Shown here: piece after piece, positions 33,645-60,868 of the stretch
How the letters are laid out: every line of letters starts with the position of its first letter
How positions within the stretch are numbered: the stretch's first letter is position 1
Virus record (IMG/VR): IMGVR_UViG_3300030107_003448
Location: 36,679 to 100,678 of that record
Origin: a virus
Strand: one strand, 5' to 3'
DNA length: 64,000 bases
Program-made: the position numbers and the translations under genes
Notes under the pieces: generated by a model
The model's database searches: none
Seen by the model: the letters and a program-made list of their open reading frames with translations, nothing else
Told to the model about the DNA's origin: nothing

Positions 33645-33667
33645 TTATTGTTGTCGGTTCTTAAAGG
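33645..33667 (-). promoter_or_regulatory. Conserved viral promoter-like element, copy 1
   Basis: CCTTTAAGAACCGACAACAATAA upstream of the MCM-like gene. Confidence 0.75.
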
Positions 33668-33701
33668 AAAGTCGATAATTGCCTCTACCAGAGGGCACAC
33701 C

Positions 33702-34406
33702 TTAAGACTTGCGTGAACGTTTCTCAACTCGCACAGGTTGTTCACTAGTTAATACCTCAATCAACCGTGCTCTAAGCACGGGCCCTAATCCTCTCACTTC
33801 TTTCAATGATTTTTCATGTAACATTTCTTCTATACACCCACATTTTTCTAATAACTTTTCACACATTTCTTGCCCGAACCCGGGTATAGATAATAATAAA
33901 TCTAAACGGACATCATTTGTAGTAACTCTCCTCAATGCTTTCGCCCCATGTCTGGAAGCAGGCTTTTCCATTTTGTGATATAATTTCGCAATAAACTGGG
34001 CCGCTTCACTATGTGTAGGAGCGTAAAATACTTGACATTCAAAGTCAGACATGATGCGAGCAAGTGTTCCTGTGAGTTCGTTTTGAATTTTAGAATAAGT
34101 AGCACGAGTGTTTCCATTTTTTTTAATCTGTGCTAAGTGTTTAGCCACAGTCCCATGCACTACTAAGAAAAACCTCTCATAATTGGCATCCATATTATCT
34201 AACTGTCTCCATAAATGTCCACTATGGCTCGACTGGAATAAATCTGCAATGCTTTTTGCTTCTACACAGGCGTTACCTAATAGGTAATCTCCTACAGGTA
34301 AATTTTGTCTACTAATAGAAATACCTAAACGGTCAGCATTCCTTTCTACAGCGTTGCATAATGGGCCACGTTCATTAGTATCAATAACGATACTCAAAGG
34401 CTTCAT
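33702..34406 (-). CDS. ERCC4/XPF-family structure-specific nuclease with HhH
   Basis: IVIDTNE, GDYLLG…VEAKSIADL and C-terminal IPGFG/VRGLG hairpins. Confidence 0.85.
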   Translation of the reverse strand: MKPLSIVIDTNERGPLCNAVERNADRLGISISRQNLPVGDYLLGNACVEAKSIADLFQSSHSGHLWRQLDNMDANYERFFLVVHGTVAKHLAQIKKNGNTRATYSKIQNELTGTLARIMSDFECQVFYAPTHSEAAQFIAKLYHKMEKPASRHGAKALRRVTTNDVRLDLLLSIPGFGQEMCEKLLEKCGCIEEMLHEKSLKEVRGLGPVLRARLIEVLTSEQPVRVEKRSRKS

Positions 34407-35656
34407 ATATTCACCCCTTGTCCAACAAGTCCATTAATTTCTGTAGTGGCCATAGTAATATTATCAGCATTCCTGCTATCCCTATTGTTAGCAGTGCTGC
34501 CGTCAATGATATTACCCATAGAAACACCGTTTGCCATGAATTCACTGTCTCTGGTGGCTCTATCATGTATGACCCCAGTGCCATCATGGAATTGACATTT
34601 TCCCATACAGTAGCCCTTCCCATACAAAGTAGCACAAGAAGGATGGTCGTCATATTTATCTGCAATGTATCTTACATGCTTGCGTGTGACATCTGGGTCC
34701 CAATCTGCCCACCCTAACGTAGACATGAAACTTATAACTTGGTCTACTGCCTTTTCTTTTTCTTCATCGGACTGTGAATTGCGCCCATTAAACCAACGTA
34801 ATCTATGTAATAAAAATTGAGCCAAATACACTCTAGGATAGTGGTCTGGGTTCCCCTCTTGACAAGCCACTGCATTTAAGCAGGGTAAGATTTTTACCCC
34901 ATCCATTTTAGCAGTAGGGATATTCATTTTAGGGGTGTTTCTTTTGAATGGAGTAGCAGTTTGTTCTTTAACTTCTAAGTGAACCCCTAATTCTCCATAA
35001 GAAAAGTAACCACGTCTAGGATTGATAGCCAACTCCATAATAGATTCTGGGGTGCCTGTCAATATTTCATTGCTAGTCAAAGGTATGCTCCACAATCCCT
35101 TTTTATCATTAAAAGAGTTAGGTATACGAATCATACCTGCGGTGTCGAATGGAACAGCAGGGTCAGAACATGATAAATCTAAATCTGCTTCCCATATATT
35201 GAGTAGTCTCCTGCCTGCCTCTTTTATACGTGACACTTCTCTACCATTAGTAGGCATATAGTCTTCTTTTAATTTAATCCAAACATGAAAACCTCCACCA
35301 CTAAACCATACCCCATGATGGATGTCATGGTCTAATAGATACGTATGTAATGTTTGTATTTGTGATAATGGCACTGCCATATCTACATCTTTTCTTTTTC
35401 TAAAATCTTTACAATCAAAATCCATAACAAAATGACGGATTACTGGTGTATTATAATCACACCTATGATGCTTAGGGGGAGTGGTGGCTCTATATCCATA
35501 CACTGTCATGTATGCATTTGCTAAACCATTTTTACCTGCCCAATATCTTTCTAATTGTGTTCCAGTAGAAACTAATCTTCTGAAACCTTTTGCTCCAGAC
35601 GCTTGAATATCCAAGACTTCTCTTGGGAAATCCAAACGCAACAAATTCACGCACAC
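34403..35656 (-). CDS. Archaeo-eukaryotic primase, PriS fused to PriL C-terminal Fe-S domain
   Basis: MDFD, SGGGFHVW and IRIPNS, followed by LPCL…PSCATL…YCMGKC. Confidence 0.85.
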   Translation of the reverse strand: MCVNLLRLDFPREVLDIQASGAKGFRRLVSTGTQLERYWAGKNGLANAYMTVYGYRATTPPKHHRCDYNTPVIRHFVMDFDCKDFRKRKDVDMAVPLSQIQTLHTYLLDHDIHHGVWFSGGGFHVWIKLKEDYMPTNGREVSRIKEAGRRLLNIWEADLDLSCSDPAVPFDTAGMIRIPNSFNDKKGLWSIPLTSNEILTGTPESIMELAINPRRGYFSYGELGVHLEVKEQTATPFKRNTPKMNIPTAKMDGVKILPCLNAVACQEGNPDHYPRVYLAQFLLHRLRWFNGRNSQSDEEKEKAVDQVISFMSTLGWADWDPDVTRKHVRYIADKYDDHPSCATLYGKGYCMGKCQFHDGTGVIHDRATRDSEFMANGVSMGNIIDGSTANNRDSRNADNITMATTEINGLVGQGVNI

Positions 35657-35952
35657 ATCTCCTGTTCATTTAACAATGCGGCAAATTCTAATATTTCTTG
35701 GAGGACTTTTCTAAGTTCTTGTGGTTCTTTTATCAATACTACATTGATATGTATTGTAATGTCAGGCGGACCACCTTGTGTTTTATCGGGGAAAACATTT
35801 TCTCCGAAAAATTCATCCAAGGTAGTTTGACGAGACACAAACTTATCCCACGTTCCTTCTTTACCCATAGGTAAAAATTTCACATCTACCACACCACAAT
35901 TTAGAACACTTTGTAACAAAGTTTCAATCGCTACGCTTAATGCTTCTTTCAC
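35647..35952 (-). CDS. Small protein with PIP box
   Basis: QTTLDEFF matches QxxLxxFF. Confidence 0.6.
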   Translation of the reverse strand: MKEALSVAIETLLQSVLNCGVVDVKFLPMGKEGTWDKFVSRQTTLDEFFGENVFPDKTQGGPPDITIHINVVLIKEPQELRKVLQEILEFAALLNEQEMCA

Positions 35953-36905
35953 AGTATCACCTCGTTATCGCTAGTCCATGCAGGACAATAAGCCATTTGG
36001 TCACAGAAGGAACATTTGAACGCATCGCCTACTGTTGGGAAATCTTCCCGTAGGTGTGCTCTTATCAATTTCTCCAGACGTTTTTTCATGGCTTTCATAC
36101 TTGAAGTCTTACATTCTTCATAGTTCCAATGTGCTCCTTCTCCTCCATTGATGCCACCCATAGGAAAACGCCATCCAAAATGAGTGACTGGAGCATCTAG
36201 CCCACGTTCAGCAAGCCATGCCTTCCCTTCTTCTGTTTTTCTTTTTTCATCTAACAAAAATTTGTATACTGATAATTCAATTCTCATACTTGATACTTTA
36301 TTGCCTTTCCATTTCCCACTCTTTAATTCTAATAAAGCCAGACCTCCGTTTTCATCTTTGAATATACGGTCAACTATACCACATAAATGAACGGGCACTA
36401 TCACGCCATCTATTTCTATATCTGTGACTACTTCTATCCATAACTCATTTCCTACAGGTAGGAAGTCTTCTCCTCCAGTGGCTATTAATCGTTCCAATTC
36501 CCATTCAGCCAATTGACGTATACCATCTAACTCCCCATGCTTATACACAGACGTTCCTGTTGCATCGTCTTCTGGGTGTCTATCTAATTCTTCGGGAGAA
36601 GGAAATGCTTTCAAAGTAAGATTCAATGCCTTTTGCATTAAGTCTTCATCTGCTGCTTTTAATATGCCATCTATATGATTAGGCATACGTTCATAAAATC
36701 CTTCTAAAGCATTATGTAAATTAACTCCACGTATGTGATAGTCTTGAGTAATCGAAGGCAATCTCTGCATCTTCTCAAATTCGTATTGTTTAGCACACCA
36801 ATCAAAAGTGCCTAAAGAAGACTTAGTGACTCTGAGAATTTTACCATTGTCTTGTTTAGGTGACCAAGCATAAGTAGAAATATCAGTCGGCTTCAATGGA
36901 CTCAC
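35949..36905 (-). CDS. Cas4-like PD-(D/E)xK exonuclease
   Basis: GIVDRI…ELKSGK, an N-terminal Cys and C-terminal CSFCDQMAYC. Confidence 0.8.
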   Translation of the reverse strand: MSPLKPTDISTYAWSPKQDNGKILRVTKSSLGTFDWCAKQYEFEKMQRLPSITQDYHIRGVNLHNALEGFYERMPNHIDGILKAADEDLMQKALNLTLKAFPSPEELDRHPEDDATGTSVYKHGELDGIRQLAEWELERLIATGGEDFLPVGNELWIEVVTDIEIDGVIVPVHLCGIVDRIFKDENGGLALLELKSGKWKGNKVSSMRIELSVYKFLLDEKRKTEEGKAWLAERGLDAPVTHFGWRFPMGGINGGEGAHWNYEECKTSSMKAMKKRLEKLIRAHLREDFPTVGDAFKCSFCDQMAYCPAWTSDNEVIL

Positions 36906-37191
36906 CTTCCCCTAAGTGCACTAACACTAAAGAGCAATAACCCATTAAGTCATACCAAATATCTATATCTCTTTCCATGCTATCATTGCCACGTTTAAGA
37001 CGGCTTAGTTTGTCATCAATTCTCACGAACAACTGTTCGATAGGGCTAGAGTTACTAAATATTCTTAATGGGTCTACTACACTATCTCCATATTGTTTGT
37101 TTTTCTTACGGACCATGTTTACACATTTCCCGAATACTCTCACTATGCGTTGTTCTGTTGTTTGTTCCTTTTTCTTTTTTCTAAATCCCAT
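36883..37191 (-). CDS. DUF1599-like (nucleotide modification-associated) protein
   Basis: KKNKQYGDS, RIDDKLSRL and DLMGY. Confidence 0.65.
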   Translation of the reverse strand: MGFRKKKKEQTTEQRIVRVFGKCVNMVRKKNKQYGDSVVDPLRIFSNSSPIEQLFVRIDDKLSRLKRGNDSMERDIDIWYDLMGYCSLVLVHLGEGESIEAD

Positions 37192-37410
37192 TTACTCACC
37201 ATCCAATAAAACTTGTAACTTTCTTTTAATAGGCTCTACTCCTACTATCAATGTGCCATCTTCTAACTCTAAAGTAGGCACGCTACTTATTGTCATAGGG
37301 GCACCATCGTCTGTTAATTTAACCTTAACAATATCTTGTAGGTTGTTATCTTGAATCCATTGTTTTAATTGTTTACAAGGTCCGCACCATTCTGTTGTCC
37401 AGATAATCAT
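37192..37410 (-). CDS. Thioredoxin/glutaredoxin-like protein
   Basis: WCGPC and SVPTL. Confidence 0.85.
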   Translation of the reverse strand: MIIWTTEWCGPCKQLKQWIQDNNLQDIVKVKLTDDGAPMTISSVPTLELEDGTLIVGVEPIKRKLQVLLDGE

Positions 37411-37628
37411 TACAGTGACCCCCTGTATTTACGGGGGTTACTGCCCATCCCTACACTTTCTGTTGTTCCCATATCTAACCAATCTGTAATTTTTCTTTGT
37501 CCGTCATGTAACAATAGGTCTGGGTAAAATTCTAACAGTGTCGTCTGTCTTGTTATTTTACCACCACATTGGCACAGGTATGGTTTATTTTCTTGCTCTT
37601 TGTTTCTTAATCTTTTTAGCCATTTCAT
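37410..37628 (-). CDS. Microprotein with two PIP-like motifs
   Basis: CQCGG followed by QTTLLEFY and QRKITDWL. Confidence 0.55.
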   Translation of the reverse strand: MKWLKRLRNKEQENKPYLCQCGGKITRQTTLLEFYPDLLLHDGQRKITDWLDMGTTESVGMGSNPRKYRGSL

Positions 37629-37876
37629 TTTATCACCTTTCTTTTTGTTTTATATTCTATCATAGAAAGAAATTTATGAGCGTTAATTAAACACTTACCA
37701 TTATCAAATTCTAAAGTAGGTACTCCCCAATGGTATACACCACTAAGAACTCCTTCATATGAGTAGGTAGAGCCGTTATGATGACTCCATTCAATTATGT
37801 ATTTTCTACCTGTAAGGTTTTGGAATTTATCCATACCTGCTATTTTTTTAATAGGTTCATTTGTTTTTTGTTTCAT
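37625..37876 (-). CDS. Hypothetical protein
   Basis: ATGA-coupled ORF. Confidence 0.5.
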   Translation of the reverse strand: MKQKTNEPIKKIAGMDKFQNLTGRKYIIEWSHHNGSTYSYEGVLSGVYHWGVPTLEFDNGKCLINAHKFLSMIEYKTKRKVIK

Positions 37877-38229
37877 TTTATCACCTCTATCTTGAAGTAT
37901 ATTTCATCTGGAAAGTCTTCAAAGTAAAAGAGTGTAGCACCACAAAGCCAACCTATATCATCATCGGCATCACGATACCAGCACCCGCCCATATCTTTGT
38001 TTACTTTCTCGACTTTAATTGAATTGGGAAACTCTACATCTGAAAACAATAATCGTATATTCTTTTCAGATTTGCTACCCATTACATTCAATGCTTTATC
38101 TATGATAGCAGGCACACCTTCTACAAAAGGTTCAGCCACTAAGTCATTCTTCTCATCATCGAAAACCCAAGTTCCCGCATGTCTGTATAATTCTAGTATT
38201 TGTATTTTATTTTTATTCATCATTTTCAT
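37873..38229 (-). CDS. DUF6717-like protein
   Basis: GTWVFDD…LVAEPFVEG…GWLC…YF pattern, recalled from the family. Confidence 0.5.
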   Translation of the reverse strand: MKMMNKNKIQILELYRHAGTWVFDDEKNDLVAEPFVEGVPAIIDKALNVMGSKSEKNIRLLFSDVEFPNSIKVEKVNKDMGGCWYRDADDDIGWLCGATLFYFEDFPDEIYFKIEVIK

Positions 38230-38461: not shown

Positions 38462-38477
38462 TTCATCACCAATTGTT

Positions 38478-38500
38478 TTTTTGTTGTCGGTTCTTAAAGG
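38478..38500 (-). promoter_or_regulatory. Conserved viral promoter-like element, copy 2
   Basis: CCTTTAAGAACCGACAACAAAAA directly after the PolB stop. Confidence 0.75.
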
Positions 38501-38501
38501 G

Positions 38502-41817: not shown

Positions 41818-41832
41818 ATAACCACCCCCTCA

Positions 41833-42828: not shown

Positions 42829-42838
42829 TTATATCTCC

Positions 42839-42977: not shown

Positions 42978-44267
42978 TCAATCAAATTGTCCTAGTCCTG
43001 TGTCCCCGCCGCTTTGTCTCCTACGTGCTCTGTTAGGGATAGCATGTATACCAAGCACATTCAGTTTAGGCACATACTTATCTCCTCTAACTTGTAGACC
43101 AATACGACCACACAATAACACAGTGCTACGTTCTGCATACTCTGCCCAACCAGAACCATCATTGAATTCAAATGGATGTCCTAGTTCACCTAATGCACCA
43201 GAAATCCAACATCTAACTTCTGCTCTTTCATCTCCAAAGGCTTGCTGTAGAGACATGCTAGATATATCCATGCTGTAATTCTTACCTGTTTGGTCCCAGT
43301 CTGCTGTTTGTGGTTCAGTGCTCATACGAGCCACGAAACCTTTTGTAATTACTATAGGACCAAAGTGCCCTTCACCATTTGACAATGATTGTTTACCTGC
43401 TTCATAGGCTTCTGCTAATTCATCCAATCCTACATAGTGTTCATGGAAGTCATCATTAGTCCAAAACTTATCTGCTCTCAAGTCACGTCTTAGGTCTGGG
43501 TCTACAAACTCATCTGTATATGATATGCTGCTTGCCCAATCATCCCATACTTCTACGACATCATCCCAACCTTCTTTTGCATCATCACGTATAGGCTTAC
43601 CATTAAACTTACATGGCACACCTAGTGTTACAACATCTTCTGGTTTCGCTGCTACACGTAGCATTCTAATCTCATCTTCAAAGTGTCCTTTCTGATTCCC
43701 AAGGAAATACAAGTATCTCACTTGGTCATATGCTGGATATGCTTTACCATAATTAGAAGACTCTGCGTTTTGCACAAGCAAACCTAACACACTATCTCCA
43801 AAACGGAATGCATTTTGTGGGAGTGTTCCTTCCACTACAGCCTCTCCTGTTTCTACTACACCATTCTTACCTTCCATGACCCATTGTCCTTCTTTAACAC
43901 GGAACACACCAACAGCACCACTTTCTATCAAAGCGTCTGGATTTTGTGCATAAGCCTTAGCAACTTTAGTTCTGTTAGATTCTCTACGGTCATTCCACTT
44001 GGCGGCAATGCCTATGAAATGTCCTACATATTCTACAGTGCTGCTACTGCCTGCTCCTTTGCGTCTAGTTTCCATAAAGAAACCTTCAGACAGGTCAATC
44101 AATACATCATCTTCTTCTACAGTCCAGTCATCCATACCGAAATCTTTCACTAGATATGCACTAAATTCTTTTAGCGCTTCATCTAAATCAATACCTACAC
44201 GGTCTGCATAGGCTTGAAGTCTTTCAGTTACTTCGTCTGGCCACTCTCTATCTTCGTTTTCATACAT
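42978..44267 (-). CDS. Putative ssDNA-binding (RPA-like) protein (likely start ATG 44267)
   Basis: Acidic, beta-rich protein between RFC and the ATPase, with an acidic/aromatic C-terminal tip. GAGGTGA RBS precedes 44267. Function is inferred from context. Confidence 0.4.
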   Translation of the reverse strand: MYENEDREWPDEVTERLQAYADRVGIDLDEALKEFSAYLVKDFGMDDWTVEEDDVLIDLSEGFFMETRRKGAGSSSTVEYVGHFIGIAAKWNDRRESNRTKVAKAYAQNPDALIESGAVGVFRVKEGQWVMEGKNGVVETGEAVVEGTLPQNAFRFGDSVLGLLVQNAESSNYGKAYPAYDQVRYLYFLGNQKGHFEDEIRMLRVAAKPEDVVTLGVPCKFNGKPIRDDAKEGWDDVVEVWDDWASSISYTDEFVDPDLRRDLRADKFWTNDDFHEHYVGLDELAEAYEAGKQSLSNGEGHFGPIVITKGFVARMSTEPQTADWDQTGKNYSMDISSMSLQQAFGDERAEVRCWISGALGELGHPFEFNDGSGWAEYAERSTVLLCGRIGLQVRGDKYVPKLNVLGIHAIPNRARRRQSGGDTGLGQFD

Positions 44268-44308
44268 TTTTATTTTCACCTCATTTGGTTTTTGTTTCCT
44301 CAATTACT

Positions 44309-44331
44309 TTATTTTTGTTGGTTCTTAAAGG
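44309..44331 (-). promoter_or_regulatory. Conserved viral promoter-like element, copy 3 (inside the RFC 3' end)
   Basis: CCTTTAAGAACCAACAAAAATAA also encodes FKNQQK*. Confidence 0.7.
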
Positions 44332-45786: not shown

Positions 45787-45887
45787 GCTCTCACCTTTAA
45801 GGGGTTTTCGCTAAGTAGGGGGGGAGGGGGGGTAGAAAAATTTCCCGTGCGAGGCATATTTATTATTGTGTTCAATTTCGTTTTCAT
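45783..45887 (-). CDS. Possible 34-aa polyproline leader peptide
   Basis: MKTKLNTIINMPRTGNFSTPPPPLLSENPLKVRA*. Its ATG is 29 nt after the TATA and its TGA overlaps the next ATG. Confidence 0.35.
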   Translation of the reverse strand: MKTKLNTIINMPRTGNFSTPPPPLLSENPLKVRA

Positions 45888-45895
45888 CAATAGTT

Positions 45896-45918
45896 TTATT
45901 GTTGTCGGTTCTTAAAGG
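45896..45918 (-). promoter_or_regulatory. Conserved viral promoter-like element, copy 4
   Basis: CCTTTAAGAACCGACAACAATAA. Its TAA is the stop of 45912..46304. Confidence 0.75.
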
Positions 45919-46304: not shown

Positions 46305-47716
46305 GCCTCCACTATATCTGTAAATTGACTAGTATCTCCTCTACCTAATTCTCCATTAATACCTGTAAATTCAAAGTTCAAAAACTTGTATGTTTCGGCC
46401 TCTATATTTGTGCAAGTGCCCTCTACTATAATGCCTAATTTCTCTATATCTTCCCAATCTTCTTCTGGGCTCACTCCTCTACGATTGAGTATCAAAATAA
46501 CATTTGTGCTCGCCTCTGCGTCAAGGGTAAGAGTGTGAATCGGGAAAGAGTCAAACCCGTCTAAAACAGCCAATCTTAAACAAATGAATCCTTCTTTGTC
46601 TTTTTTCATTTCTGTAATTAATAGGCGGAATTGGAATGCGTGGTGCACAAGAATCCACCCGTTATTATCTCCGGGTTTGTATGGGCCTCCATCGACAATA
46701 CGGGCTAGTTCATTATCGTCTAACAAAGACATAATTTGTGTAGCAGATTCATTACCTGTTAATTCCATTGGCTCTATCACTTTCATTCTTTTACCACTAC
46801 TAGCCCAAAAACGTAGTATGTGAATCCTGTCTTTGTAAGGGAGGTGTATTTTAGATTCATTGTAATATAAGCAATCAGTCACACACCATAATTTATTATT
46901 CATAGATTCTACTTCTACAATCCAATCTCCTCTAGGTTTGTAACCATCCCACATTGTTTTGAGACCAATTACCTTAGACCCGTCTCTATTTCTTAAGGTG
47001 GCTTTTCTGTTATGGATATATAAAAATCTACGTGGTCCTCTCACTATATCTACAAATGAGTCTTCGGGCATCGTAGTTTTTCCCCACTGTTGATAATGCC
47101 CCCCTTTCATAGCACAATCTGGTCTAGGTGTTAGCATGGGTAATGTTTCTGGTGATTTTAATAGTCTGATAACTACCTCAAGAAAAGGGATAGTAGAATA
47201 AGCGGCATGTATATCATTTGGTTTAAATTTCATATGAGGCACATGTGACCATGCTAGAGCATATAAAAACGAACCTTGGCTCATAGAAATGGGCCTACTT
47301 GTTAGAATAGTAGACCAAAATAATAGTGCTTCTAGTTCATCCATTTGATTGCATAATGTAAGAATATCATGATTGTATAAATCCTTAGCGATAGCCAAGC
47401 ATTGAGTAATGGTTATGCCAGTAGATGTTATTCCTTCAGATTCGGATGCTAATATTTCTGGTAAAGTTTCATGTCCTAAAGATTGTGAAATAGTATGAGG
47501 GTAAACATTTAGTTCCTCAGATAATTTAAGCCGTAAATTTTTGCTACTAATATAAGGGCCACAGAAAAGGAAATCACATAATTCTATAATTTCTTCGTGG
47601 TTTTTAGATTCCTCTATCACACCTTTGACAAAATCTTTACGATTCTCAAAATGGGGTTTTTTTATCCATAATTCAGCCGCTAGTTCAGCCACTTTTCTTA
47701 ATCGCATTTCAACCAT
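46295..47716 (-). CDS. ATP-dependent DNA ligase homolog, probably catalytically inactive
   Basis: Ligase motif order is kept (RNRDG, IVEVE, TDCLYYN, LPYKDRIHIL, PYKPG…W). Motif I reads DIVRGPR and motif V reads WILVH. Confidence 0.65.
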   Translation of the reverse strand: MVEMRLRKVAELAAELWIKKPHFENRKDFVKGVIEESKNHEEIIELCDFLFCGPYISSKNLRLKLSEELNVYPHTISQSLGHETLPEILASESEGITSTGITITQCLAIAKDLYNHDILTLCNQMDELEALLFWSTILTSRPISMSQGSFLYALAWSHVPHMKFKPNDIHAAYSTIPFLEVVIRLLKSPETLPMLTPRPDCAMKGGHYQQWGKTTMPEDSFVDIVRGPRRFLYIHNRKATLRNRDGSKVIGLKTMWDGYKPRGDWIVEVESMNNKLWCVTDCLYYNESKIHLPYKDRIHILRFWASSGKRMKVIEPMELTGNESATQIMSLLDDNELARIVDGGPYKPGDNNGWILVHHAFQFRLLITEMKKDKEGFICLRLAVLDGFDSFPIHTLTLDAEASTNVILILNRRGVSPEEDWEDIEKLGIIVEGTCTNIEAETYKFLNFEFTGINGELGRGDTSQFTDIVEACS

Positions 47717-48018
47717 CTCGGCTTAGGTTGTGTGCTTACTCCATAATTGTCTTTCAATTTTTTAGCGAATTGTCTAATTGTGACTTTCGCCCCATACTTA
47801 TTTGCTGTAAAATAAAGACAATCTACCATTGTCCCTTGTAAAGTGCGTGGAGCCTTGCCTGCATATTTATCATACAGAGACAAGGCGTGCTCTATAATAT
47901 CGGGAGACAAACCTAACGCTTGTCCCATTTTTATTCCTATATGATGTGCATTATCTTTAAAGCCACGGTAAGCATTGGCTTTAACTCTCATTCTTTCGGA
48001 ATGTCCTTTAACTCTCAT
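47698..48018 (-). CDS. Single-cyclin-repeat TFB-like protein
   Basis: MGQALGLSPDIIEHALSLY…MVDCLYFTANKYGAKVTIRQFAK parallels TFB cyclin repeats. Confidence 0.6.
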   Translation of the reverse strand: MRVKGHSERMRVKANAYRGFKDNAHHIGIKMGQALGLSPDIIEHALSLYDKYAGKAPRTLQGTMVDCLYFTANKYGAKVTIRQFAKKLKDNYGVSTQPKPRWLKCD

Positions 48019-51587: not shown

Positions 51588-53217
51588 TCAATACTTTTAG
51601 CACTTCTGATACAGTAGGAACATCTTCTCCTAACCCTGTGATTCCTGCATCTTTCACATAGGATTTGAAATCGCCCCAATCAGTAATTGCTTCGCCATTT
51701 TCTCTAGCGTAGTCTTTCATTGTATTTGTTCCTATAGTGGTCAACAGACTATCGATTTTCTGTAGCCTCTTATTGAAAGTGTTCATCTTCAATGTGTTAC
51801 CTGTTAACTTACGTCTACCATCTGTCCATTCTGGTTTATGTGTTACTGCGCCTGTCATAACTTGGTATGCATGGAACAATGTTCCTTTATTCTCGGGTTG
51901 AACTGCTACCCATGGTTCATTGTAATTTGTCCAACCATGACCGAACAATTCCCACATATGACTACCAATAAGATTACCATCTTTGTTGGGTCTTGGATAT
52001 GAAATTAAGCCCGCTCTTTCAGATAATGTGATTAGTCTTTCAAATTGAGCATCTTCAAGTCTTACATGTTTCAATGCTTCGACATGTCCTAGTCCTCTTT
52101 GTGCATCTACAATTACACTATCGATTGTGCCTGCAAAATCATCCCAATTAACAGGCTCCATCACTCCTCTAGTATGTCTCATAGCCGCAATAGTTCGCTG
52201 GCCACCAATAACACCTGCATTGGTGCAAGCATTACGTCTTGCTACTGCTTGTAGTTTGAGTGAACCGCTACCATCTAAAGAGTTATGAATACTGAATCCA
52301 TAACGCCACATTGAATGCACTTGTTCTTGTAATCCCATCATAGTTTCTGGGGCTAACCAACCACTATCTGCTTCTGCTACAGTAGTCCATTTATCCGATA
52401 TTACATCAGTGCCATACCCTCTCTTAAAGTGAACTGCTCCACTTACGTCACAATCTAACCTCATTTGTTTACCTCTATCAAAGGCTAACACACTTGCTTG
52501 CCAACCATTCAAAGCGGCTCTTTGTAGAATCGGCCTACATAATGTAGGATAAGATAAAGGATAGTATCTATCACTATATGTGCCTAATAATGCACCCGCA
52601 GGTTCTCTTGCACTTTTGAAATTAGTATTGAAACCCAAATATACTGCTGAATCCCCTTTAGTGTTATTCACTCTTTGCATACGAGGTGCTGTTTGTATTT
52701 TGAGCGGGTTGTTGTCTCCTTCTTGCACAGGCACATAAGCAGGTAAAAGGACTGGTTCAAAATCCCAATCACATATAGTTTCAAATCTACCACCTGTTAT
52801 CAATGCCCCTCCCCATATATCTTGTGGGATAGGGTCACCATTAGCATCTTCTAACTTAATGATATTAGGTGTATCAAATTTATGAAACGATGGTTTAGAA
52901 TCATCTAAAGACAATTCTGGTATGTCTTCATTGTTTTCAAAAGCAGACACAATCATAATATCTTTTTCATCTGTCACCAATGGTGCTGAATTTCCCATAA
53001 ACTGCTTATGGGGATTATATGTTCCTGCTTCTGTTTGTATCGTTTCTAAACTAAATACACTTCTTCCGTCTGTCAAGGCTTCCTGCCTTGTTATCGCTTT
53101 TCTAGGCACCCATTGATGTTGACCTCCAGTCTGTGCTTCGTATTGAATCAAAATCCTTTGACCACTAGCATCATCAACTTTACCTATTACAATTATTTTT
53201 TCTGTCATCTTTCTCAC
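51580..53217 (-). CDS. DUF932-family protein
   Basis: SDRYYPL and GFSIHNSLDGSGSL…RNACTN…MRHT. Confidence 0.7.
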   Translation of the reverse strand: MRKMTEKIIVIGKVDDASGQRILIQYEAQTGGQHQWVPRKAITRQEALTDGRSVFSLETIQTEAGTYNPHKQFMGNSAPLVTDEKDIMIVSAFENNEDIPELSLDDSKPSFHKFDTPNIIKLEDANGDPIPQDIWGGALITGGRFETICDWDFEPVLLPAYVPVQEGDNNPLKIQTAPRMQRVNNTKGDSAVYLGFNTNFKSAREPAGALLGTYSDRYYPLSYPTLCRPILQRAALNGWQASVLAFDRGKQMRLDCDVSGAVHFKRGYGTDVISDKWTTVAEADSGWLAPETMMGLQEQVHSMWRYGFSIHNSLDGSGSLKLQAVARRNACTNAGVIGGQRTIAAMRHTRGVMEPVNWDDFAGTIDSVIVDAQRGLGHVEALKHVRLEDAQFERLITLSERAGLISYPRPNKDGNLIGSHMWELFGHGWTNYNEPWVAVQPENKGTLFHAYQVMTGAVTHKPEWTDGRRKLTGNTLKMNTFNKRLQKIDSLLTTIGTNTMKDYARENGEAITDWGDFKSYVKDAGITGLGEDVPTVSEVLKVLNE

Positions 53218-53222
53218 TTCCT

Positions 53223-53245
53223 TTATTGTTGTTGGTTCTTAAAGG
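53223..53245 (-). promoter_or_regulatory. Conserved viral promoter-like element, copy 5 (inside the upstream gene end)
   Basis: CCTTTAAGAACCAACAACAATAA also encodes FKNQQQ*. Confidence 0.75.
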
Positions 53246-54467: not shown

Positions 54468-56430
54468 CTTTCTTCACCTCTGGTATTCCTATTTCCATTT
54501 GCTTTACATGTTCAATCATATCAATTATTTTTTGTTTCCTTAGTTTATTATCATAGGTCGCTTTGCCAACACACGCCAACTCTGTATGATGTTTGTCAGC
54601 AACGATAACTATACCAGACTGAAGACCAATATCCTTCCAGTCTTTATCTACATACCAAGGGAGGAATGCTTCTGTAGGGGATAATTGTTCTGGTTTTTTG
54701 TATTTCAAATGGTCCGTTTTTTCTGTGGATTCCCAAGCCTCTGCATCCCAAGGAGTTACATATTTTAATTCCACGTTTCTATTCTGTTTTGATACTGTGT
54801 ATATAGGTGAACCACTTACCATCCACTCTATGAGATGGTTAGAATCATGGATTACCTTCTCAACATCTGCATTCAATTTCTTAGCAATATCTAATGCTTG
54901 GTTTTGGTCTATGTAATATTTGTCAAATACTTTCCTGTTTGTGAGTCCGCCGTTCTGGACTACGTTGTGTCTCTGAATATGATACACAGGCACCAAACCC
55001 GTCCATTTCCCTTTGGTTGAATTACGCCCAAGACTTTGAAATTTCCAACCATTAATTCGGTTCTCTTTACATTTATCTGCTATGAACTGTTGTCTCTCAA
55101 GTTTAGTCCTTTCTGTTTGTATTCTATTCCACCATCGTAATTGGTAATGGCCACGGACACCCATCTGTTTTTCAAGGTATACTTTCTTCGCATGGACCGT
55201 TCCATCGTATTTTGTGTATGTCTTCATCTCCCATTTCTGATTCCCATCTTCATCACGGTCTGGTTCTGTCCATGTAGATTTTAGCCAACATTTACTTTCA
55301 GTTCTGGAACGTTGAATTGCTTTACGGATTTCGTCTAACAAGAATGTTTCATCTAAACATTCTTCAAGCCATTTGTCTGGGTCTTCAAGGTCATTCAATC
55401 TCAATACTTGTGCAAGATATTGTTTACCATTATAAGTATAAGATTGAGGTTCTCGCACCTTCCATCCATACCCATACTGTTGCCAACTTACTTTCATAGG
55501 TAAAGGGTTACCTTCGTGGTCTGCATAGTAAACTAAAGCATTTTCATATGTTTGGCCATCATGATATAAACAATGATGGTCACCCTTATCGCTCCATCCG
55601 CATTCTCCTTTGTATGATTCATATCTAAACATGTAATAACTTAGAGTCTTATACCACCAATCTTCTGTATATGTTTCTGGTTTACTCAACATCCATTTAA
55701 GTTGAGCCCCTACTAATGTGGGCTTACCTTCATTTGTCACCCATTTATCATACTGGGGTAAAGAACCCCAGATAGATTCATCCATGTTCGTGCATGAAAT
55801 GATTCCCTTCCATGTATCACCTGTTGGTGCTGGCCAATCCTTTGTCATATCTCTCCATGAATCTAATTGCTTCCTTACATATTTCATTAAGAAATCTTTG
55901 TCTTTCTTTTCATTACCAATCACACGAATTTGTTTAATGTTTTTACCAGTTCTCCAATGTGATTGTGCTGCTAAATTAGAATTGCTATATCTTGGGTCCA
56001 TCTCTCTAATATAAAGTAATTGACCATTGAACATATCATGTCCACAAGACTTTAATCCTCTCACTGGCACATTCTTTTGACGTATAAGATGCCAGTAGGC
56101 TGCCGCTCTACGTGTATATTTGTTATACAAATCTTTAGCACGAGAGAATTTCTCTGGCCCTTTATCATAGAAGGTATCTAACACAGCCGCATCTATTGCC
56201 ATTAATTCTTTCGCTTGCCTATACCAACCACGTTTTTGTCCTATGCACGTCATCATTTCTGCTATTTTTCTTTCGTCACGAGAAGGCACTATACCCATAT
56301 CTCGCCATGTAGTCATCGTTTCACGAACATCAGTGCCATACCCATTATGTGATTTATAGTTTATATCTTCTATAGGTATTGCGCTCATCTTCGCTTTTTT
56401 CTTTTCTTTTGTTTTCATTTCCATTTGCAT
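54451..56430 (-). CDS. Large Trp/Lys-rich hypothetical protein
   Basis: 659-aa ORF with no recognised motif. Confidence 0.55.
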   Translation of the reverse strand: MQMEMKTKEKKKAKMSAIPIEDINYKSHNGYGTDVRETMTTWRDMGIVPSRDERKIAEMMTCIGQKRGWYRQAKELMAIDAAVLDTFYDKGPEKFSRAKDLYNKYTRRAAAYWHLIRQKNVPVRGLKSCGHDMFNGQLLYIREMDPRYSNSNLAAQSHWRTGKNIKQIRVIGNEKKDKDFLMKYVRKQLDSWRDMTKDWPAPTGDTWKGIISCTNMDESIWGSLPQYDKWVTNEGKPTLVGAQLKWMLSKPETYTEDWWYKTLSYYMFRYESYKGECGWSDKGDHHCLYHDGQTYENALVYYADHEGNPLPMKVSWQQYGYGWKVREPQSYTYNGKQYLAQVLRLNDLEDPDKWLEECLDETFLLDEIRKAIQRSRTESKCWLKSTWTEPDRDEDGNQKWEMKTYTKYDGTVHAKKVYLEKQMGVRGHYQLRWWNRIQTERTKLERQQFIADKCKENRINGWKFQSLGRNSTKGKWTGLVPVYHIQRHNVVQNGGLTNRKVFDKYYIDQNQALDIAKKLNADVEKVIHDSNHLIEWMVSGSPIYTVSKQNRNVELKYVTPWDAEAWESTEKTDHLKYKKPEQLSPTEAFLPWYVDKDWKDIGLQSGIVIVADKHHTELACVGKATYDNKLRKQKIIDMIEHVKQMEIGIPEVKKDEDSE

Positions 56431-56439
56431 TCTTTCACC

Positions 56440-57291
56440 TCAATTTTCAGAATATTTTAAAGCACGACTTACTAAGTCTGCTTTCTTACCTGCAACAGGT
56501 AATCCTCTTTCCACCATCCAATCAACTAACTCTGCTTTCTTCATAGATTCTAATTGCTGTGTTAACAGATGGTTGCCTGCCTCTACTGCTGATAATACTT
56601 CACCAGTAGTAATGCGCCCATCTTGCACAGCCTTCCTTAATTGTTCTTGAACCGATACAGGTTCTTCCTCGACAAGATTGAATGTGTTGTTTATGAACTC
56701 CTCTATCCTTGTCAACCGTTCATCTGCTACTGCATCTGTTAGTTTATTGGTATCTGCTACTGCATCTGTTAGTTTATTCCATTCCTCTTTAGTAACGACT
56801 TTGTAATCACACTCATCATAGTCATCTGCATCGGTTGCTCTCACTAAGATGTTCAAAGCCATGTCATCCATGACATCACATCCGTCTTCCACTAAGTCCT
56901 TTACTTTATTTTCAACAAATCCATCTAAATCTAACACGTCATCTGGGTCTACATATTCACCTACAAGGACGGTATCTAAAAGTGAGCCTGCATCTATGTG
57001 GTCAGTCCAGTCTACATCTCTTAATGTTCTCTTTACTTCGTAGTTAATGTCTATCCCTTGGTCTTCCCAATCTATATCTTCTATCAAATCATCTACATCT
57101 ATGTAATTATTTAGTATAACATCCTCCAAAATTGAGTCTGCGTCTATGTGTCTTATGTCTTCAACGACTCCTGCTATGGCTCTACCTAACTCCGCATTCT
57201 TATTTGTTAACGTAATTACACGTTCTTCTAGTTCTTTCATCTTAAGCAGCATCTTAAGCATGCTCGTCTCTGTCTGTGTATCATCCTTCAT
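56440..57291 (-). CDS. Highly acidic protein with N-terminal coiled coil and C-terminal SAP domain
   Basis: LESMKKAELVDWMVERGLPVAGKKADLVSRA and D/E-rich repeats. Confidence 0.65.
   Translation of the reverse strand: MKDDTQTETSMLKMLLKMKELEERVITLTNKNAELGRAIAGVVEDIRHIDADSILEDVILNNYIDVDDLIEDIDWEDQGIDINYEVKRTLRDVDWTDHIDAGSLLDTVLVGEYVDPDDVLDLDGFVENKVKDLVEDGCDVMDDMALNILVRATDADDYDECDYKVVTKEEWNKLTDAVADTNKLTDAVADERLTRIEEFINNTFNLVEEEPVSVQEQLRKAVQDGRITTGEVLSAVEAGNHLLTQQLESMKKAELVDWMVERGLPVAGKKADLVSRALKYSEN
56722..56778. repeat. Perfect 27-bp direct repeat with 30-bp period
   Basis: atctgctactgcatctgttagtttatt at 56722 and 56752, encoding NKLTDAVAD twice. Confidence 0.9.
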
Positions 57292-57318
57292 AATAGTTCC
57301 ACCTTTTCTTCATTCTTT

Positions 57319-57341
57319 TTATTGTTGTTGGTTCTTAAAGG
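57319..57341 (-). promoter_or_regulatory. Conserved viral promoter-like element, copy 6
   Basis: CCTTTAAGAACCAACAACAATAA, with a second TATA (TTTATATA) just upstream. Confidence 0.75.
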
Positions 57342-57382
57342 AATTGGCTTCCTATATAAATAACGGACACCTCTGTGCATAC

Positions 57383-57883
57383 TCACTCACACTCCTCTAA
57401 TGCTATGCGTAACATCGCAAGCGAAGAACGTCCGTCTAAGAATTGTTGCACTGCTTCTCGTAAACCTGCATGCTGTCTGTCTATTTCTTTACGTAGCATT
57501 ACAATTAATTCATCAACAGTGTGTTTAGGTTTTCGTTTTTGTTGTTCACCTTTGTAATAATTATGTGTATATGGTTCCTTGGGCCGTTCTCTAAATCTAG
57601 TTGCATCAAGTATAGGATTATTATATCCACTACTTTGTAGGTCTTCCCATGTTGTTTCATTCGCAAAATCTATTGCATGGTATTGATGCGACCCTATCTT
57701 TCTTATGTGCCCGTCCCTTGTTAGTTCTTCTAAATAGTTCTGACAAGTGGCACCAGTTATACCATACTCTTTTTGCCCCCATACATAAATTTCTTTTTCA
57801 GTCATTCCTTTCCAGCCCTTTAATCGCATATGCTCTACAAGTGCTTTCATTCTTTCTTTCTTTGTTGTTCCTTTCTTCATCAT
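57383..57883 (-). CDS. Winged-helix DNA-binding protein
   Basis: MTEKEIY…YGITGATCQNYLEELTRDGHIRK. Confidence 0.55.
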   Translation of the reverse strand: MMKKGTTKKERMKALVEHMRLKGWKGMTEKEIYVWGQKEYGITGATCQNYLEELTRDGHIRKIGSHQYHAIDFANETTWEDLQSSGYNNPILDATRFRERPKEPYTHNYYKGEQQKRKPKHTVDELIVMLRKEIDRQHAGLREAVQQFLDGRSSLAMLRIALEECE

Positions 57884-58026
57884 TGTTCACCCTTTTTCTT
57901 TCTCATCTCCGCTTTCTTTTTTAAATAACATTTACCACAAGTATTCTTTTTATCTTTTTTAGTATACCAATAAGTGCTTGTGTTTCTTCTATTAATATAT
58001 TCGCCGCATACCTCACATTTACTCAT
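57880..58026 (-). CDS. 48-aa zinc-finger microprotein (not in ORF track)
   Basis: MSKCEVCG…TCGKCYLKKK…GEQ*. Confidence 0.6.
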   Translation of the reverse strand: MSKCEVCGEYINRRNTSTYWYTKKDKKNTCGKCYLKKKAEMRKKKGEQ

Positions 58027-58027
58027 A

Positions 58028-60343
58028 CTATCGCCCAAGGAAACTTTCGTTCTCTTGTATCTTTTTAAGTAATGCGGACACTATACCCGCACGTTGTTCT
58101 TGTTCTCCTCCGTCTAACACAGCCTTAACTACTGTTCTCTTTTCTTCTATGATTCTATCGAAGTGCTCATCTATCGTGCCTGCGCAGGATAAATATATAG
58201 CATGGACTTTATCACTTTCTTGTCCTATACGTAACACTCTATCTTCTGCCTGTTCTTCCCAAGCAGGAGTCCACTCACGCTCTATGAATACTACTGTGTC
58301 GGCTGCTGTTAATGTGATACCTTCCTTGGCCGCTACTGTGGAGCACACTAGAACATCTAAGTCTCCTCTCTGAAATTCCTCTACAATTTCAGCACGCCTA
58401 ATAGAGGGAGTCTCTCCTGTTATTTTCTCATAAACAAATGGTTCTTTCTCTTGTTCCATGAGTTCACATAACTGGGTAATCACTTCCCTATGATGAGCAT
58501 ACACTACCAATGGTTTGTCTGTTTGGTATCTATACTCACGCATCCATTCTATAGTCGGGCCTACTTTTAATTGACCACAAGTATGTCTTAGGTCTGTAAG
58601 CATATTCAATACGAAACCTTTAGGCATACCTCCTCCTGTTTGATAACTCTCATATTTTCTTATCCAATCTAAACGTGCTTGTCTATATTGTTTCCTTGCT
58701 TTAGCATCCATAATCACAGGCACAAAGGAACGAGTCTTAGGAGGTAACTCGGAGAGCACTTCACTCTTTAATCTACGAATACAAAAGTCTCTAATCCTTT
58801 CATTTAATTCTGTGACATTAGAAGACCCAGAATAATTCCAGCCCCAACCATTATGATATGGGTTACAATATCTTTGTGCAAATTGAAACCAATTGTTGAA
58901 ATTAGATGGGCGCAATAAATTGAGTGTAGTATAAAATTCAATAGGTCTGTTAGTAATAGCAGTGCCAGATAAACATAGAACTGCTTCGCATGTATTGGCT
59001 ACATATAATGTGGCTTCTGTTCTTTGTGTATTAGCATCTTTAAGATAATGTGATTCATCTATGATACACGTCTTGACTCCTGCTATGACTAAGTTCTCAC
59101 ATTGTTTATTCATTAACGAATAACTAATCACAACAAAGTCTGTAGGCTCTATGTCTTGTTTACCATTATCTATTACAGAACAAGTAGCATTAGGAATCCA
59201 TTCTTGTATTTCTTTTAGCCAATTGTATTTGACATTAGCAGGGCATACTACAACTACAGGCCATTGCTCTGGGTGTAAAGATGCATAGGCTAATGATTGT
59301 ATTGTTTTACCTATACCCATATCATCACCAATTAAACATCTACCCTTTGAATACTCAGCAAAGGCGAGCCCTGCATACTGGAATGGGTAGAGTTCTTTAC
59401 CTGCTGGTAATACTTTCGATAGCCTCTCTTTATATGAGTTCAACAAATCAATGTCTTCTAGTTCTGGTGCTTGGCTTAACTCTACTCTCTTAATAGCCTC
59501 TCCTAGATATTCATCTACTTCTGGAATAGATGCTATAGCATTCGCTAAAGGAGGGTAGAGTTCATCTAACTCTTTGTATAATGTGTGGCCGTGTGATAAT
59601 GGTATCGACCAATGCAACTTAGTTCCATCAAATTTGAAACTAGGTATACTCTTTACTGCTAACCTAACCTTGTCTCTTAACTCTGCGTTAGGTATAAACG
59701 GCCAACGTAATATTAGTTTGTCTTTATTTAATTGAGCATACTTATGTATCTGTTTACTTTGATAACAATAAAACTCATGCTCTTTTGATTCTGAAGTGGA
59801 GGAGGGGGGAGGTGGCTTAGAGTCACCGATAAGGGAGGTTGTTTGGCTTCCATACCCCTCCTCCGTTAGAAGCCATGTTGAGAAATCATATCCATGCTTC
59901 TTGAGTATATTTACTGCTGTTCTTATTATGTGTTCGTCATCCATAATAGACCAGACTTTATCGTTTTGTTCCCACCTACTTTGTGGGAAAGGTAATGTAT
60001 TCTTTAATTCGTTTTTCGCCTCTTGATTATAAGGCATGTGTAATGCTATCCTAGGACCATACTTATCTTTGAATCTCATGATACTAATCTTAGGTGCGTC
60101 AGCCACAGGCTGTCTGCTAAAATGGTCTAGTGCTTCTGCATCAAACTTAATACCTAACTCACTAGCGAGTATAGGTAATTGTTTGTCGCTATATCTTTTT
60201 AATCTCTTAGCCACAAAGATTGATTGTTGGGTAGTTAGATGTGATAGGTGTGACAACTTATTGAAGGCATCGTAATCTGATTTACTATTACAGCCACGCT
60301 CGGCCATGCCTTTCACCAGTAGGTGTATCACTTGGTTGTCCAT
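58028..60343 (-). CDS. SNF2-family helicase, SMARCAL1/HARP-like
   Basis: LYPFQ, DDMGIGKT, IDESH, SGTAITNRP, EGITLTAA and QAEDRVLRIGQ, plus two N-terminal HARP-like segments. Confidence 0.85.
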   Translation of the reverse strand: MDNQVIHLLVKGMAERGCNSKSDYDAFNKLSHLSHLTTQQSIFVAKRLKRYSDKQLPILASELGIKFDAEALDHFSRQPVADAPKISIMRFKDKYGPRIALHMPYNQEAKNELKNTLPFPQSRWEQNDKVWSIMDDEHIIRTAVNILKKHGYDFSTWLLTEEGYGSQTTSLIGDSKPPPPSSTSESKEHEFYCYQSKQIHKYAQLNKDKLILRWPFIPNAELRDKVRLAVKSIPSFKFDGTKLHWSIPLSHGHTLYKELDELYPPLANAIASIPEVDEYLGEAIKRVELSQAPELEDIDLLNSYKERLSKVLPAGKELYPFQYAGLAFAEYSKGRCLIGDDMGIGKTIQSLAYASLHPEQWPVVVVCPANVKYNWLKEIQEWIPNATCSVIDNGKQDIEPTDFVVISYSLMNKQCENLVIAGVKTCIIDESHYLKDANTQRTEATLYVANTCEAVLCLSGTAITNRPIEFYTTLNLLRPSNFNNWFQFAQRYCNPYHNGWGWNYSGSSNVTELNERIRDFCIRRLKSEVLSELPPKTRSFVPVIMDAKARKQYRQARLDWIRKYESYQTGGGMPKGFVLNMLTDLRHTCGQLKVGPTIEWMREYRYQTDKPLVVYAHHREVITQLCELMEQEKEPFVYEKITGETPSIRRAEIVEEFQRGDLDVLVCSTVAAKEGITLTAADTVVFIEREWTPAWEEQAEDRVLRIGQESDKVHAIYLSCAGTIDEHFDRIIEEKRTVVKAVLDGGEQEQRAGIVSALLKKIQENESFLGR

Positions 60344-60352
60344 CTACTCACC

Positions 60353-60601
60353 TTATTGGTTCTTTAGTTTCCATTCAGCAGGGTAACTATATTTATTAAC
60401 ACGCTCAAATTCACTGTTTACATTTAGAACACACGCTAGTTTTTGTATGCTCGGTGTATGTTTAACTCTAACTATGCGCCCGCAAGTTTCATATTCTCTA
60501 TTCGCTATCGCTGATTGTATTTGTATAGTAGACAGGACTTTATCGCCTAAAGCATCCTTAATCCATTTCTTTAATCTAGCATGTCTTTCGGGTCTAGGCA
60601 T
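60353..60601 (-). CDS. Small wHTH-like protein
   Basis: LSTIQIQSAI…PSIQKLACVL…FERV. Confidence 0.4.
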   Translation of the reverse strand: MPRPERHARLKKWIKDALGDKVLSTIQIQSAIANREYETCGRIVRVKHTPSIQKLACVLNVNSEFERVNKYSYPAEWKLKNQ

Positions 60602-60840
60602 TATTCTTCCTCTCCCCAGAACCCAATCGGTAGTTCTCGTAACTGCATAGCATAGTATCTAGTCATAGAGTTCTCGTCTACGCAAGATAGTATTATTGAG
60701 TGATACCCATCTGCTGCGGCCTCAAGAAATAAATAGTCACGGTCTTGGCAACTATGTAATTCCTGTTTCACTCTGCCTATCATTTTTAGTTCTCTATTGT
60801 GTGCTTCAATTTGTAGTTCATTCATTTTTATCTTCTCCAT
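60601..60840 (-). CDS. Hypothetical protein, probably leaderless
   Basis: ATG lies 26 nt after the TATA of promoter copy 7, with no RBS. Confidence 0.5.
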   Translation of the reverse strand: MEKIKMNELQIEAHNRELKMIGRVKQELHSCQDRDYLFLEAAADGYHSIILSCVDENSMTRYYAMQLRELPIGFWGEEE

Positions 60841-60845
60841 ATATT

Positions 60846-60868
60846 TTATTGTTGTTGGTTCTTAAAGA
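60846..60868 (-). promoter_or_regulatory. Conserved viral promoter-like element, copy 7
   Basis: TCTTTAAGAACCAACAACAATAA. Confidence 0.75.

Follow-up and report, generated by a model that had tools for sequence, protein, structure and literature searches.

The virus examined here keeps its replication genes in one long minus-strand arm, and the question raised by this locus is whether a short element recurring throughout that arm forms the promoters of a viral regulon and, if so, what reads it. The sequence analyzed (hereafter the window) is a stretch of 64,000 nucleotides, bases 36679-100678 and thus the last 64 kb of the 100,678-bp virus record IMGVR_UViG_3300030107_003448 of IMG/VR (G000), which is rated 94% complete. 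Judged from its sequence, the virus is a group A-type magrovirus of Marine Group II archaea with a genome of about 100 kb, encoding a thermosome, an SNF2 helicase, a family B DNA polymerase (PolB), RFC and the transcription factor TFB. Group A magroviruses, which infect Marine Group II archaea, have as their published signature the pairing of a thermosome with an SNF2 helicase (PMC5434244). An original prediction had described seven near-identical copies of a 23-bp element in the window and proposed that they are a virus-specific promoter class, read through its downstream part by the viral TFB or by a second, smaller TFB-like protein (mini-TFB). The part of this proposal concerning a promoter-defined replication regulon is well supported by the comparative sequence evidence given below, and the part concerning its reading by the viral TFB or mini-TFB is not.

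A discrete motif confined to the minus-strand arm

A search with the pattern CCTTTAAGAACCRACAAMAAWAA gave exactly seven matches in the window, all on the minus strand, at 33645, 38478, 44309, 45896, 53223, 57319 and 60846. Six of these are exact and the seventh, which begins TC, has one mismatch, in agreement with the copies listed originally. No match to the pattern was obtained in any of 100 dinucleotide-preserving shuffles, and the first 36.7 kb of the record, outside the window, contains no copy. Using a weight matrix derived from 24 sites (those of this genome together with those of two related genomes, G003 and G002), the seven copies scored 38-45 bits, all other positions on both strands of the genome scored 8 bits or less, and the top score in shuffled genomes was 11 bits. 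As nothing else in the genome exceeds 8 bits, the motif constitutes a discrete class without weak copies.

At genome position 65.8 kb (window 29153) the coding strand switches, from plus before that point to minus for the remainder of the genome. The products of the minus-strand arm include a full-length TFB, a thermosome subunit, PolB, the RFC small subunit, an ERCC4 nuclease, a PD-(D/E)XK nuclease, a primase-like protein, the SNF2 helicase, a DUF932 protein and a SAP-domain protein. All seven copies fall within this arm (window 29142-64000) and none within the plus-strand arm, which spans 65.8 kb of the genome, 29 kb of them inside the window, and mapping confirmed the earlier observation that each copy stands upstream of a gene start in the replication arm. 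The genes of the minus-strand arm otherwise abut or overlap one another; the copies fill most of the few true gaps, just 5' of start codons, and split the arm into seven units of 1.6-7.3 kb. A same-strand start codon follows every copy here (7/7) and in G003 and G002 (17/17), in most cases with a Shine-Dalgarno sequence. At three copies the stop codon of the upstream gene lies inside the motif, namely copy 3 (RFC), copy 4 (a 130-aa gene) and copy 5 (a 208-aa gene), and stop codons built into the motif in this manner indicate that the DNA signal constrains the coding sequence and overrides it.

A second promoter class was also looked for. In a repeated-word search the other frequent words proved to be coding repeats (GATATAGATTGG in this genome, GCGAACCAATGGAC in G003 and CCGGGCATCATA, in tandem, in G002), and a scan for TATA words in the plus-strand arms of G000 and G003 gave no common motif.

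Conservation of the motif in related viruses

The two IMG/VR genomes G003 and G002 are collinear with this virus, with a protein identity of 60-77%. The first (108,650 bp, rated complete) has 12 copies of ccTTTAAGAACCAYCARCAATA and the second (91 kb) has five motif copies, all of which occur on the coding strand of the same arm at orthologous operon starts. At five sites that are orthologous across the three genomes the 23-bp motif is 84% identical, compared with 39% for the 30 bp on each side. Further multi-copy contigs with the motif were found by a metagenome scan, contigs from metagenomes and from IMG/VR being kept only if they had several copies or the full context. One of the metagenome contigs, with 59% G+C, still has CTTTAAGAACCGACRACAAC before the same MVKHY gene that follows the copy 1 orthologs of G003 and G002. 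Five IMG/VR contigs with exact-pattern matches were examined and rejected, and most single matches are attributable to chance.

At greater distance, a search with a TFB profile gave 18 related viral loci with TFB. The distant loci that keep the gene order ERCC4, 470-aa, exonuclease-like, thermosome, TFB have TTTATAT or TTTATAA, preceded by CC or CA, in the gap before the 470-aa gene, and the boxes at orthologous sites across the distant TFB-encoding magroviruses are TTTATAT, TTAAATA or TTTATAA. The presence of ordinary TATA boxes at these orthologous sites indicates that TTTAAGAA is the TATA box of the present clade. Each of these distant lineages also repeats a block of its own after the TATA box, namely TTAAATACCTTTGAMACCCCATAGAAT (L198, three copies), TTTATATGCATCTSNAATWCCAC (L187, three copies) and TTTATAATCCTCAACGGWTMCA (L196, two copies). 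On these sequence comparisons, the general layout in TFB-bearing magroviruses is a host-type TATA box followed by a lineage-private proximal block. Within the clade itself, position 12 (counted, as are the alignment positions below, from the first T of TTTAAG) is A in 7/7 copies here and T or C in 12/12 copies of G003 at orthologous sites, and is mixed in G002. A block that is uniform within a genome and different between genomes points to a trans-acting reader or to homogenization.

Anatomy of the predicted core promoter

In the alignment of 24 sites, positions 0-10 are invariant, strong conservation continues to position 21, an A-rich stretch follows at 22-27 and a second conservation peak occurs at 28-30; there is no information upstream of -3. 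The box TTTAAGAA is invariant in 24/24 sites, and the flank before it has C at -1 and 0 and mostly T at -3 and -2. Between TATA box and predicted start, at approximately -20 to -8, lies the conserved block CC-R-W-C-A-R-C-A-A-T-A, so that the almost invariant sequence reported earlier downstream of TTTAAG is real.

The second peak was examined in 35 sites, of which 34 have a pyrimidine at position 28 and 34 a purine at position 29 (binomial P ~1e-17 against a downstream pyrimidine background of 0.29, the sites being partly orthologous). This pyrimidine-purine step is kept also where the Shine-Dalgarno sequence lies much further downstream, and it was therefore taken as the initiator, with the start at position 29. 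The suggestion that TTTAAG is a TATA box at archaeal spacing stands as regards its TATA-like character, and the 28/29 step falls at the end of the window of 23-28 nt in which starts had been expected. One piece of evidence put forward for that spacing, an ATG at 60840 said to lack a ribosome-binding site, was misread: its T and G are the conserved 28/29 step, and the in-frame ATG at 60825 follows GGAGA. The start codon of this gene is corrected accordingly to 60825, and those at 44267 and 53208 replace the TTG/GTG starts given in the list of open reading frames (ORFs).

In nearly all of the 24 aligned sites GGTGA, GGAGA or GAGGTG precedes the start codon, and within the window the Shine-Dalgarno sequence is absent at copy 4 and weak at copy 5. 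At five of the seven window copies the predicted start is 7-34 nt from the start codon, the shortest layout being TTTAAGAA-N20-GGTGA-N4-ATG.

Comparison with host genomes and host promoters

If the motif were simply the common host promoter, its core should be frequent in Poseidoniales genomes. The 11-mer core CTTTAAGAACC has five occurrences in 101 such genomes compared with ~329 for the reversed word, and the five contexts are random-looking save for one possible host promoter. None of the four genomes tested (three Poseidoniales and a mis-binned bacterial metagenome-assembled genome, MAG) contains the 15-mer core, and the block without its TATA box occurs at most four times per genome, with a total of 55 against 24 for the control, which is near background. 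The motif is near-unused in the hosts and kept in related viruses, and the earlier expectation that it would differ from the common host promoter is thus upheld. Compounding of general word bias explains most of the roughly 66-fold shortfall of the 11-mer, TTTAAG alone being depleted ~4-fold, and active avoidance of the 11-mer by the hosts was not adopted as an explanation.

Host promoters were sampled at tRNA, TFB and thermosome genes, as a TATA/Shine-Dalgarno profile upstream of crude longest-ORF calls was uninformative owing to poor starts. The 30 tRNA genes of a low-G+C Poseidoniales genome have the boxes cccTTAAAT, cTTAAAT, TTCAAAT and TTGAAAT, 29-33 nt before the mature 5' end, and the upstream regions of host TFB1 and thermosome genes have ccTTAAATAA, ccTTAAAAG and TTGAAACA. 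Boxes upstream of host tRNA, TFB and thermosome genes include TTAAAT, TTAAATAA and TTGAAAC. The spacing of 28 nt from first T to start in the viral element fits that of the host tRNA boxes. The host promoters sampled have cc or tc before the TATA box, which suggests that the absence of a purine-rich TFB recognition element (BRE) is normal for this lineage and that the textbook BRE may not apply to it. The earlier remark that the upstream flank of the viral motif is not conserved and lacks such an element is correct as an observation, the flank being uninformative beyond -3, but this is probably not a special property of the virus.

A model for the regulon and the possible readers of the block

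Given this combination of TATA box, initiator and placement, the copies are most likely promoters with a start at position 29. It is likewise probable, on comparative grounds, that each represents a complete archaeal core promoter of ~32 bp (TATA box, private block at ~-20 to -8 and initiator) heading one operon. TBP would bind TTTAAGAA at approximately -28 to -21 and would be joined by TFB, that of the host at the onset of infection and later probably also the viral TFB, whose DNA-reading residues are the same. Transcription by the host RNA polymerase would then begin at the purine that lies 28 nt beyond the first T. This would be in keeping with archaeal viruses in general, which rely on the host RNA polymerase and of which none is known to encode one (PMC5569661). 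The resulting 5' untranslated regions (UTRs) would be ~7-34 nt long and, at the shortest spacing, would begin with the Shine-Dalgarno sequence. The block would act as a virus-private proximal element, uniting the seven operons as a co-regulated set apart from host promoters and from other viral promoters.

A number of points weigh against this model. The 35 sites are non-identical but many are orthologous, and hence they are not independent. The T-G-R at positions 28-30 could partly reflect a Shine-Dalgarno sequence at a preferred distance from the box. With the start at position 29, the center of the TATA box lies at about -24.5, which is 2 nt nearer than the classical -26/-27, and in the shortest layouts the Shine-Dalgarno sequence would stand at the extreme 5' end of the mRNA. 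Finally, no reader of the block was found among the arm proteins.

Granted that the copies are promoters, a dedicated viral regulator is the most plausible reader of the block, at distinctly less than an even chance; the basal machinery alone is a weaker candidate, and the viral TFB a slightly weaker one again.

Taken as a whole, the proposal that the block is an operator, through which a dedicated viral or, less likely, host regulator times the replication regulon, is possible but tentative. Thirteen positions are under strong selection, which is beyond the needs of a generic melting region, and the block differs between magrovirus lineages while being uniform within a genome, and position 12 contrasts between this genome and G003. 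Precedents are available in that Aca8 has been proposed to act at SIRV2 early promoters and in that archaeal repressors block polymerase recruitment downstream of the TATA box (PMC11065993, PMC5569661). However, the block is asymmetric and without an inverted repeat, unlike typical dimeric operators, and the mixture of position-12 variants in G002 means that the constraint is loose in that genome. In addition, no helix-turn-helix, ribbon-helix-helix or zinc-finger regulator was recognized among the 30 arm proteins, the only hits of this kind being a weak Mnd1-HTH match and the SAP domain, and a regulator search of 20 small arm proteins gave only sub-threshold matches.

The TFB is the only confidently recognized transcription factor in the window, and the original prediction named it, or the mini-TFB, as the possible reader in a sigma-switch-like programme, such a programme being pure inference. 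The DNA immediately downstream of the TATA box, where eukaryotes have the downstream BRE (BREd), is contacted by the first cyclin repeat of TFB/TFIIB, and a full-length TFB is found in every lineage with private promoters, at 18 viral loci. The viral TFB (29142-30062, minus strand) is itself complete, with Zn ribbon, B-reader/linker and two cyclin repeats (Pfam TFIIB repeat, E 1e-35; Zn ribbon, E 3e-12), and is a relative of the Poseidoniales-type TFB1, being 59% identical to that of the host. However, host TFB1 has exactly the same C-terminal BRE-reading helix (GVTEVTIRNRYK) and the same RGRS loop in repeat 1, and the B-reader/linker of the viral protein is essentially as in the host. In a tree limited to four host sequences but otherwise built on all rows, host TFB1 and the viral TFBs form one unresolved polytomy in which the viral sequences are not exceptionally divergent, although the terminal branch of the G000 TFB is relatively long; single and multiple viral acquisition are both compatible with the topology. 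Furthermore, the TFB gene is the last one behind copy 1. The motif would accordingly have to fire before viral TFB is made, which suggests that a host factor is able to fire it first, unless TFB is packaged in the virion.

The mini-TFB (106 aa; 47698-48018, minus strand) has no Pfam match and only a weak match to a TFB profile (hhalign probability 2%), and its Atlas structure model resembles TFIIB cyclin repeats (TM 0.60-0.67); on that model it is probably a single TFIIB-type cyclin fold. An ortholog with 62.5% identity is present in G002. In G003, with its 12 motif copies, no homolog was detectable by tblastn at E up to 10 and the syntenic spot has no gene-sized gap, so that the mini-TFB cannot be a required reader. 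With the DNA-reading residues of the viral TFB equal to those of the host and its own gene behind a copy, assignment of the block to either protein is not supported. That the block is read by the viral TFB, either by itself or together with the mini-TFB, and the host polymerase thereby redirected in the manner of an alternative sigma factor is accordingly considered unlikely.

It is very unlikely that the element acts in RNA, as a processing or termination site or as an unstructured C/A-rich leader aiding ribosome access to the next Shine-Dalgarno sequence. All copies are on the sense strand, 5' of a Shine-Dalgarno sequence and ATG, and the block is G-poor and, from its sequence, unable to fold. 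However, the distance to the Shine-Dalgarno sequence or ATG is variable (7 to ~40 nt) and that to the pyrimidine-purine step is fixed; the most conserved part is of TATA type, with canonical TATA boxes at the same place in distant relatives; and the T-run typical of archaeal termination is missing.

The least probable reading of all, a promoter for an unrecognized virus-encoded RNA polymerase comparable with the 23-bp promoters of T7-like phages, has in its favor the length, invariance and discreteness of the motif, which resemble phage-polymerase promoters, and several large arm proteins without a recognizable family, but for these large proteins sequence searches of Pfam, PHROGs and PDB gave no polymerase (a very divergent enzyme could have escaped them), no DxDGD-type catalytic signature is common to G000 and G003, no such polymerase is known from an archaeal virus (PMC5569661), and the virus encodes a TFB, which serves the host polymerase.

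Relation to known promoter systems

We know of no experimental work on the promoters of these archaea or on the control of gene expression by their viruses. The accessible papers on magroviruses make no mention of promoters or TFB, and the Aoguangviridae profile of the ICTV includes a TFB gene on its genome map.

The promoter model shares with the canonical archaeal core promoter an eight-base TATA-type box, an A-rich stretch, a pyrimidine-purine initiator ~25-28 nt downstream and an orientation toward the gene. It differs from it in that the proximal region is sequence-specific and not merely A/T-rich, in that there is no information beyond -3, and in a spacing that is ~2 nt shorter. A likeness may also be drawn with the BREd of eukaryotes, which is a sequence immediately downstream of the TATA box at the first cyclin repeat of TFIIB/TFB, although its consensus is unrelated and the block here reaches much further toward the start.

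Among archaeal viruses, in SIRV1/SIRV2 the TATA box of most promoters is closely followed by a GTC element (Kessler et al., 2004, as reported in PMC5569661). As far as that secondary account extends, the likeness is that of an archaeal virus with a private conserved sequence directly downstream of a host-type TATA box, and the differences are that the element has three bases and an unrelated sequence and belongs to a crenarchaeal rod-shaped virus without a TFB gene. In the present case a block of ~13 bp fills the interval from TATA box to start in a tailed virus of Poseidoniales that has its own TFB. A closer parallel in organization is provided by the early (anti-defense) genes of SIRV2 and the T6 promoters of SSV, where conserved regulatory sequences surround a near-identical core promoter (PMC11065993). 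There, too, a core promoter and a conserved flank are common to co-expressed genes, the flanks differ between viruses and a viral reader has been proposed. Those promoters, however, are supported by transcriptomes, each drives one small early gene, and their BRE is strong and purine-rich, whereas the present ones are predicted from sequence, head replication-gene operons of 1.6-7.3 kb and have no purine-rich BRE. By analogy, the 23-bp promoters of T7 and the middle and late promoters of T4 (MotA/AsiA, gp55) may be likened to this system as uniform, virus-private promoter classes that organize a temporal gene set; in contrast to those phages, neither a viral polymerase nor a factor with altered DNA-reading residues was found here.

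The element provides a precise promoter model with seven predicted starts and an operon map of the magrovirus replication arm. Together with a host-like viral TFB, it forms a compact system in which to ask whether an archaeal virus biases the basal machinery toward its own promoters. The principle of a private element beside a TATA box of host type dates from the work on SIRV, and the advance is therefore incremental unless the link to TFB is true. That link is the most interesting possibility. If the block were a downstream recognition element read by the viral TFB, perhaps helped by the mini-TFB where present, which we regard as improbable, it would be the archaeal equivalent of a sigma switch, and the TFB-promoter pair of each lineage would have co-evolved to capture the host RNA polymerase for the replication genes.

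The seven predicted promoters and their operons

All of the features in this section lie on the minus strand. Promoter copy 1 (33636-33667; motif 33645-33667) has the first T of its TATA box at 33665 and its predicted start at the G at 33637. Its operon comprises a 470-aa protein (ATG 33626), a 203-aa exonuclease-like protein, the thermosome and TFB. GGTGA begins at the predicted +1 of this copy, whose 5' UTR would be 11 nt, and orthologous copies occur 5' of the MVKHY gene in G003 and G002. Copy 2 (38469-38500; motif 38478-38500; predicted start 38470) is placed directly after the PolB stop codon and precedes an 82-aa gene (ATG 38461), small genes, the PD-(D/E)XK nuclease and the primase-like protein, the operon extending to the ERCC4 nuclease. 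The ortholog in G003 likewise comes after PolB, as does a degenerate one in G002.

Copy 3 (44300-44331; motif 44309-44331; predicted start 44301), whose last three motif bases, TAA, terminate RFC, heads the genes from a 429-aa gene (ATG 44267, after GAGGTGA) to PolB. In copy 4 (45887-45918; motif 45896-45918; predicted start 45888) it is the TAA within TTTAAG that ends the 130-aa gene, and the operon consists of a proline-rich micro-ORF, small genes and RFC. Copy 5 (53214-53245; motif 53223-53245; predicted start 53215), whose motif ends in a TAA that closes the 208-aa gene, precedes the DUF932 protein (ATG 53208), an 823-aa protein, the mini-TFB, a 473-aa protein and the 130-aa protein. Orthologous copies of copies 3, 4 and 5 are present in both G003 and G002. 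The micro-ORF (MPRTGNFSTPPPPP...) occupies 45857-45887, directly after copy 4, and has a version in G003 (MPQKNTPTPPSP...) with GGTGA-N4-ATG; it may represent a conserved small peptide or a leader.

Copy 6 (57310-57341; motif 57319-57341; predicted start 57311) heads the SAP-domain protein (ATG 57291), a 659-aa protein and the 208-aa protein, and its counterpart in G003 is a copy 5' of the ortholog of the 659-aa protein. Copy 7, the one beginning TC (60837-60868; motif 60846-60868; predicted start 60838), is followed by a 74-aa gene (ATG 60825, after GGAGA) and the SNF2 helicase, with the operon continuing to a 166-aa protein. The distal 3 kb of the arm (60871-63959) contains small genes, a pyrimidine-dimer glycosylase and a TRASH-like zinc protein and has no motif copies; the corresponding region of G003, which is non-homologous, has five further copies.

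Other features of the virus and its relatives

In two distant TFB-bearing magroviruses, four or five genes (L197 2023-3573, L188 3589-4551) have an identical translation start region, AGGAGGCTTCACAATG, which is a conserved ribosome-binding cassette and not a promoter. Regarding the repeated coding words, GCGAACCAATGGAC... encodes the peptide G-E-P-M-D-L/I-A-M-R-L-L-K in at least eight G003 proteins near the ends of that genome (508-2545, 6084 and 108100-108577). In the present window, six tandem coding repeats of 96-102 nt with GATATAGATTGGGG were found at 6382-7140 on the plus strand, within the ORF at 6299-7585, the repeated peptide being ~32 aa long.

The best cellular matches of the thermosome are in Poseidoniaceae, once two presumed viral contigs are set aside. 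These contigs, NZQM01000180.1 (L037) and NZQM01000043.1 (L038), are filed in a 'Parvibaculum sp.' MAG and encode thermosomes that are 56% and 46% identical, respectively, to the viral one; both probably derive from magroviruses and were wrongly binned into a bacterial MAG.

The large plus-strand proteins of the window had no Pfam match except for a ConA-like lectin domain in a single ORF of 5700 aa (8785-25887, plus strand). In the first 2000 residues of this protein the lectin domain (Laminin_G_3) was the only recognizable feature, and the ORF probably encodes a giant tail or adhesin protein. On the minus strand, a 72-aa thioredoxin/glutaredoxin-like protein, a sub-threshold match, is encoded at 37192-37410 and the pyrimidine-dimer DNA glycosylase (E 9e-8) at 61678-62193, these two being auxiliary redox and repair genes of the replication arm.

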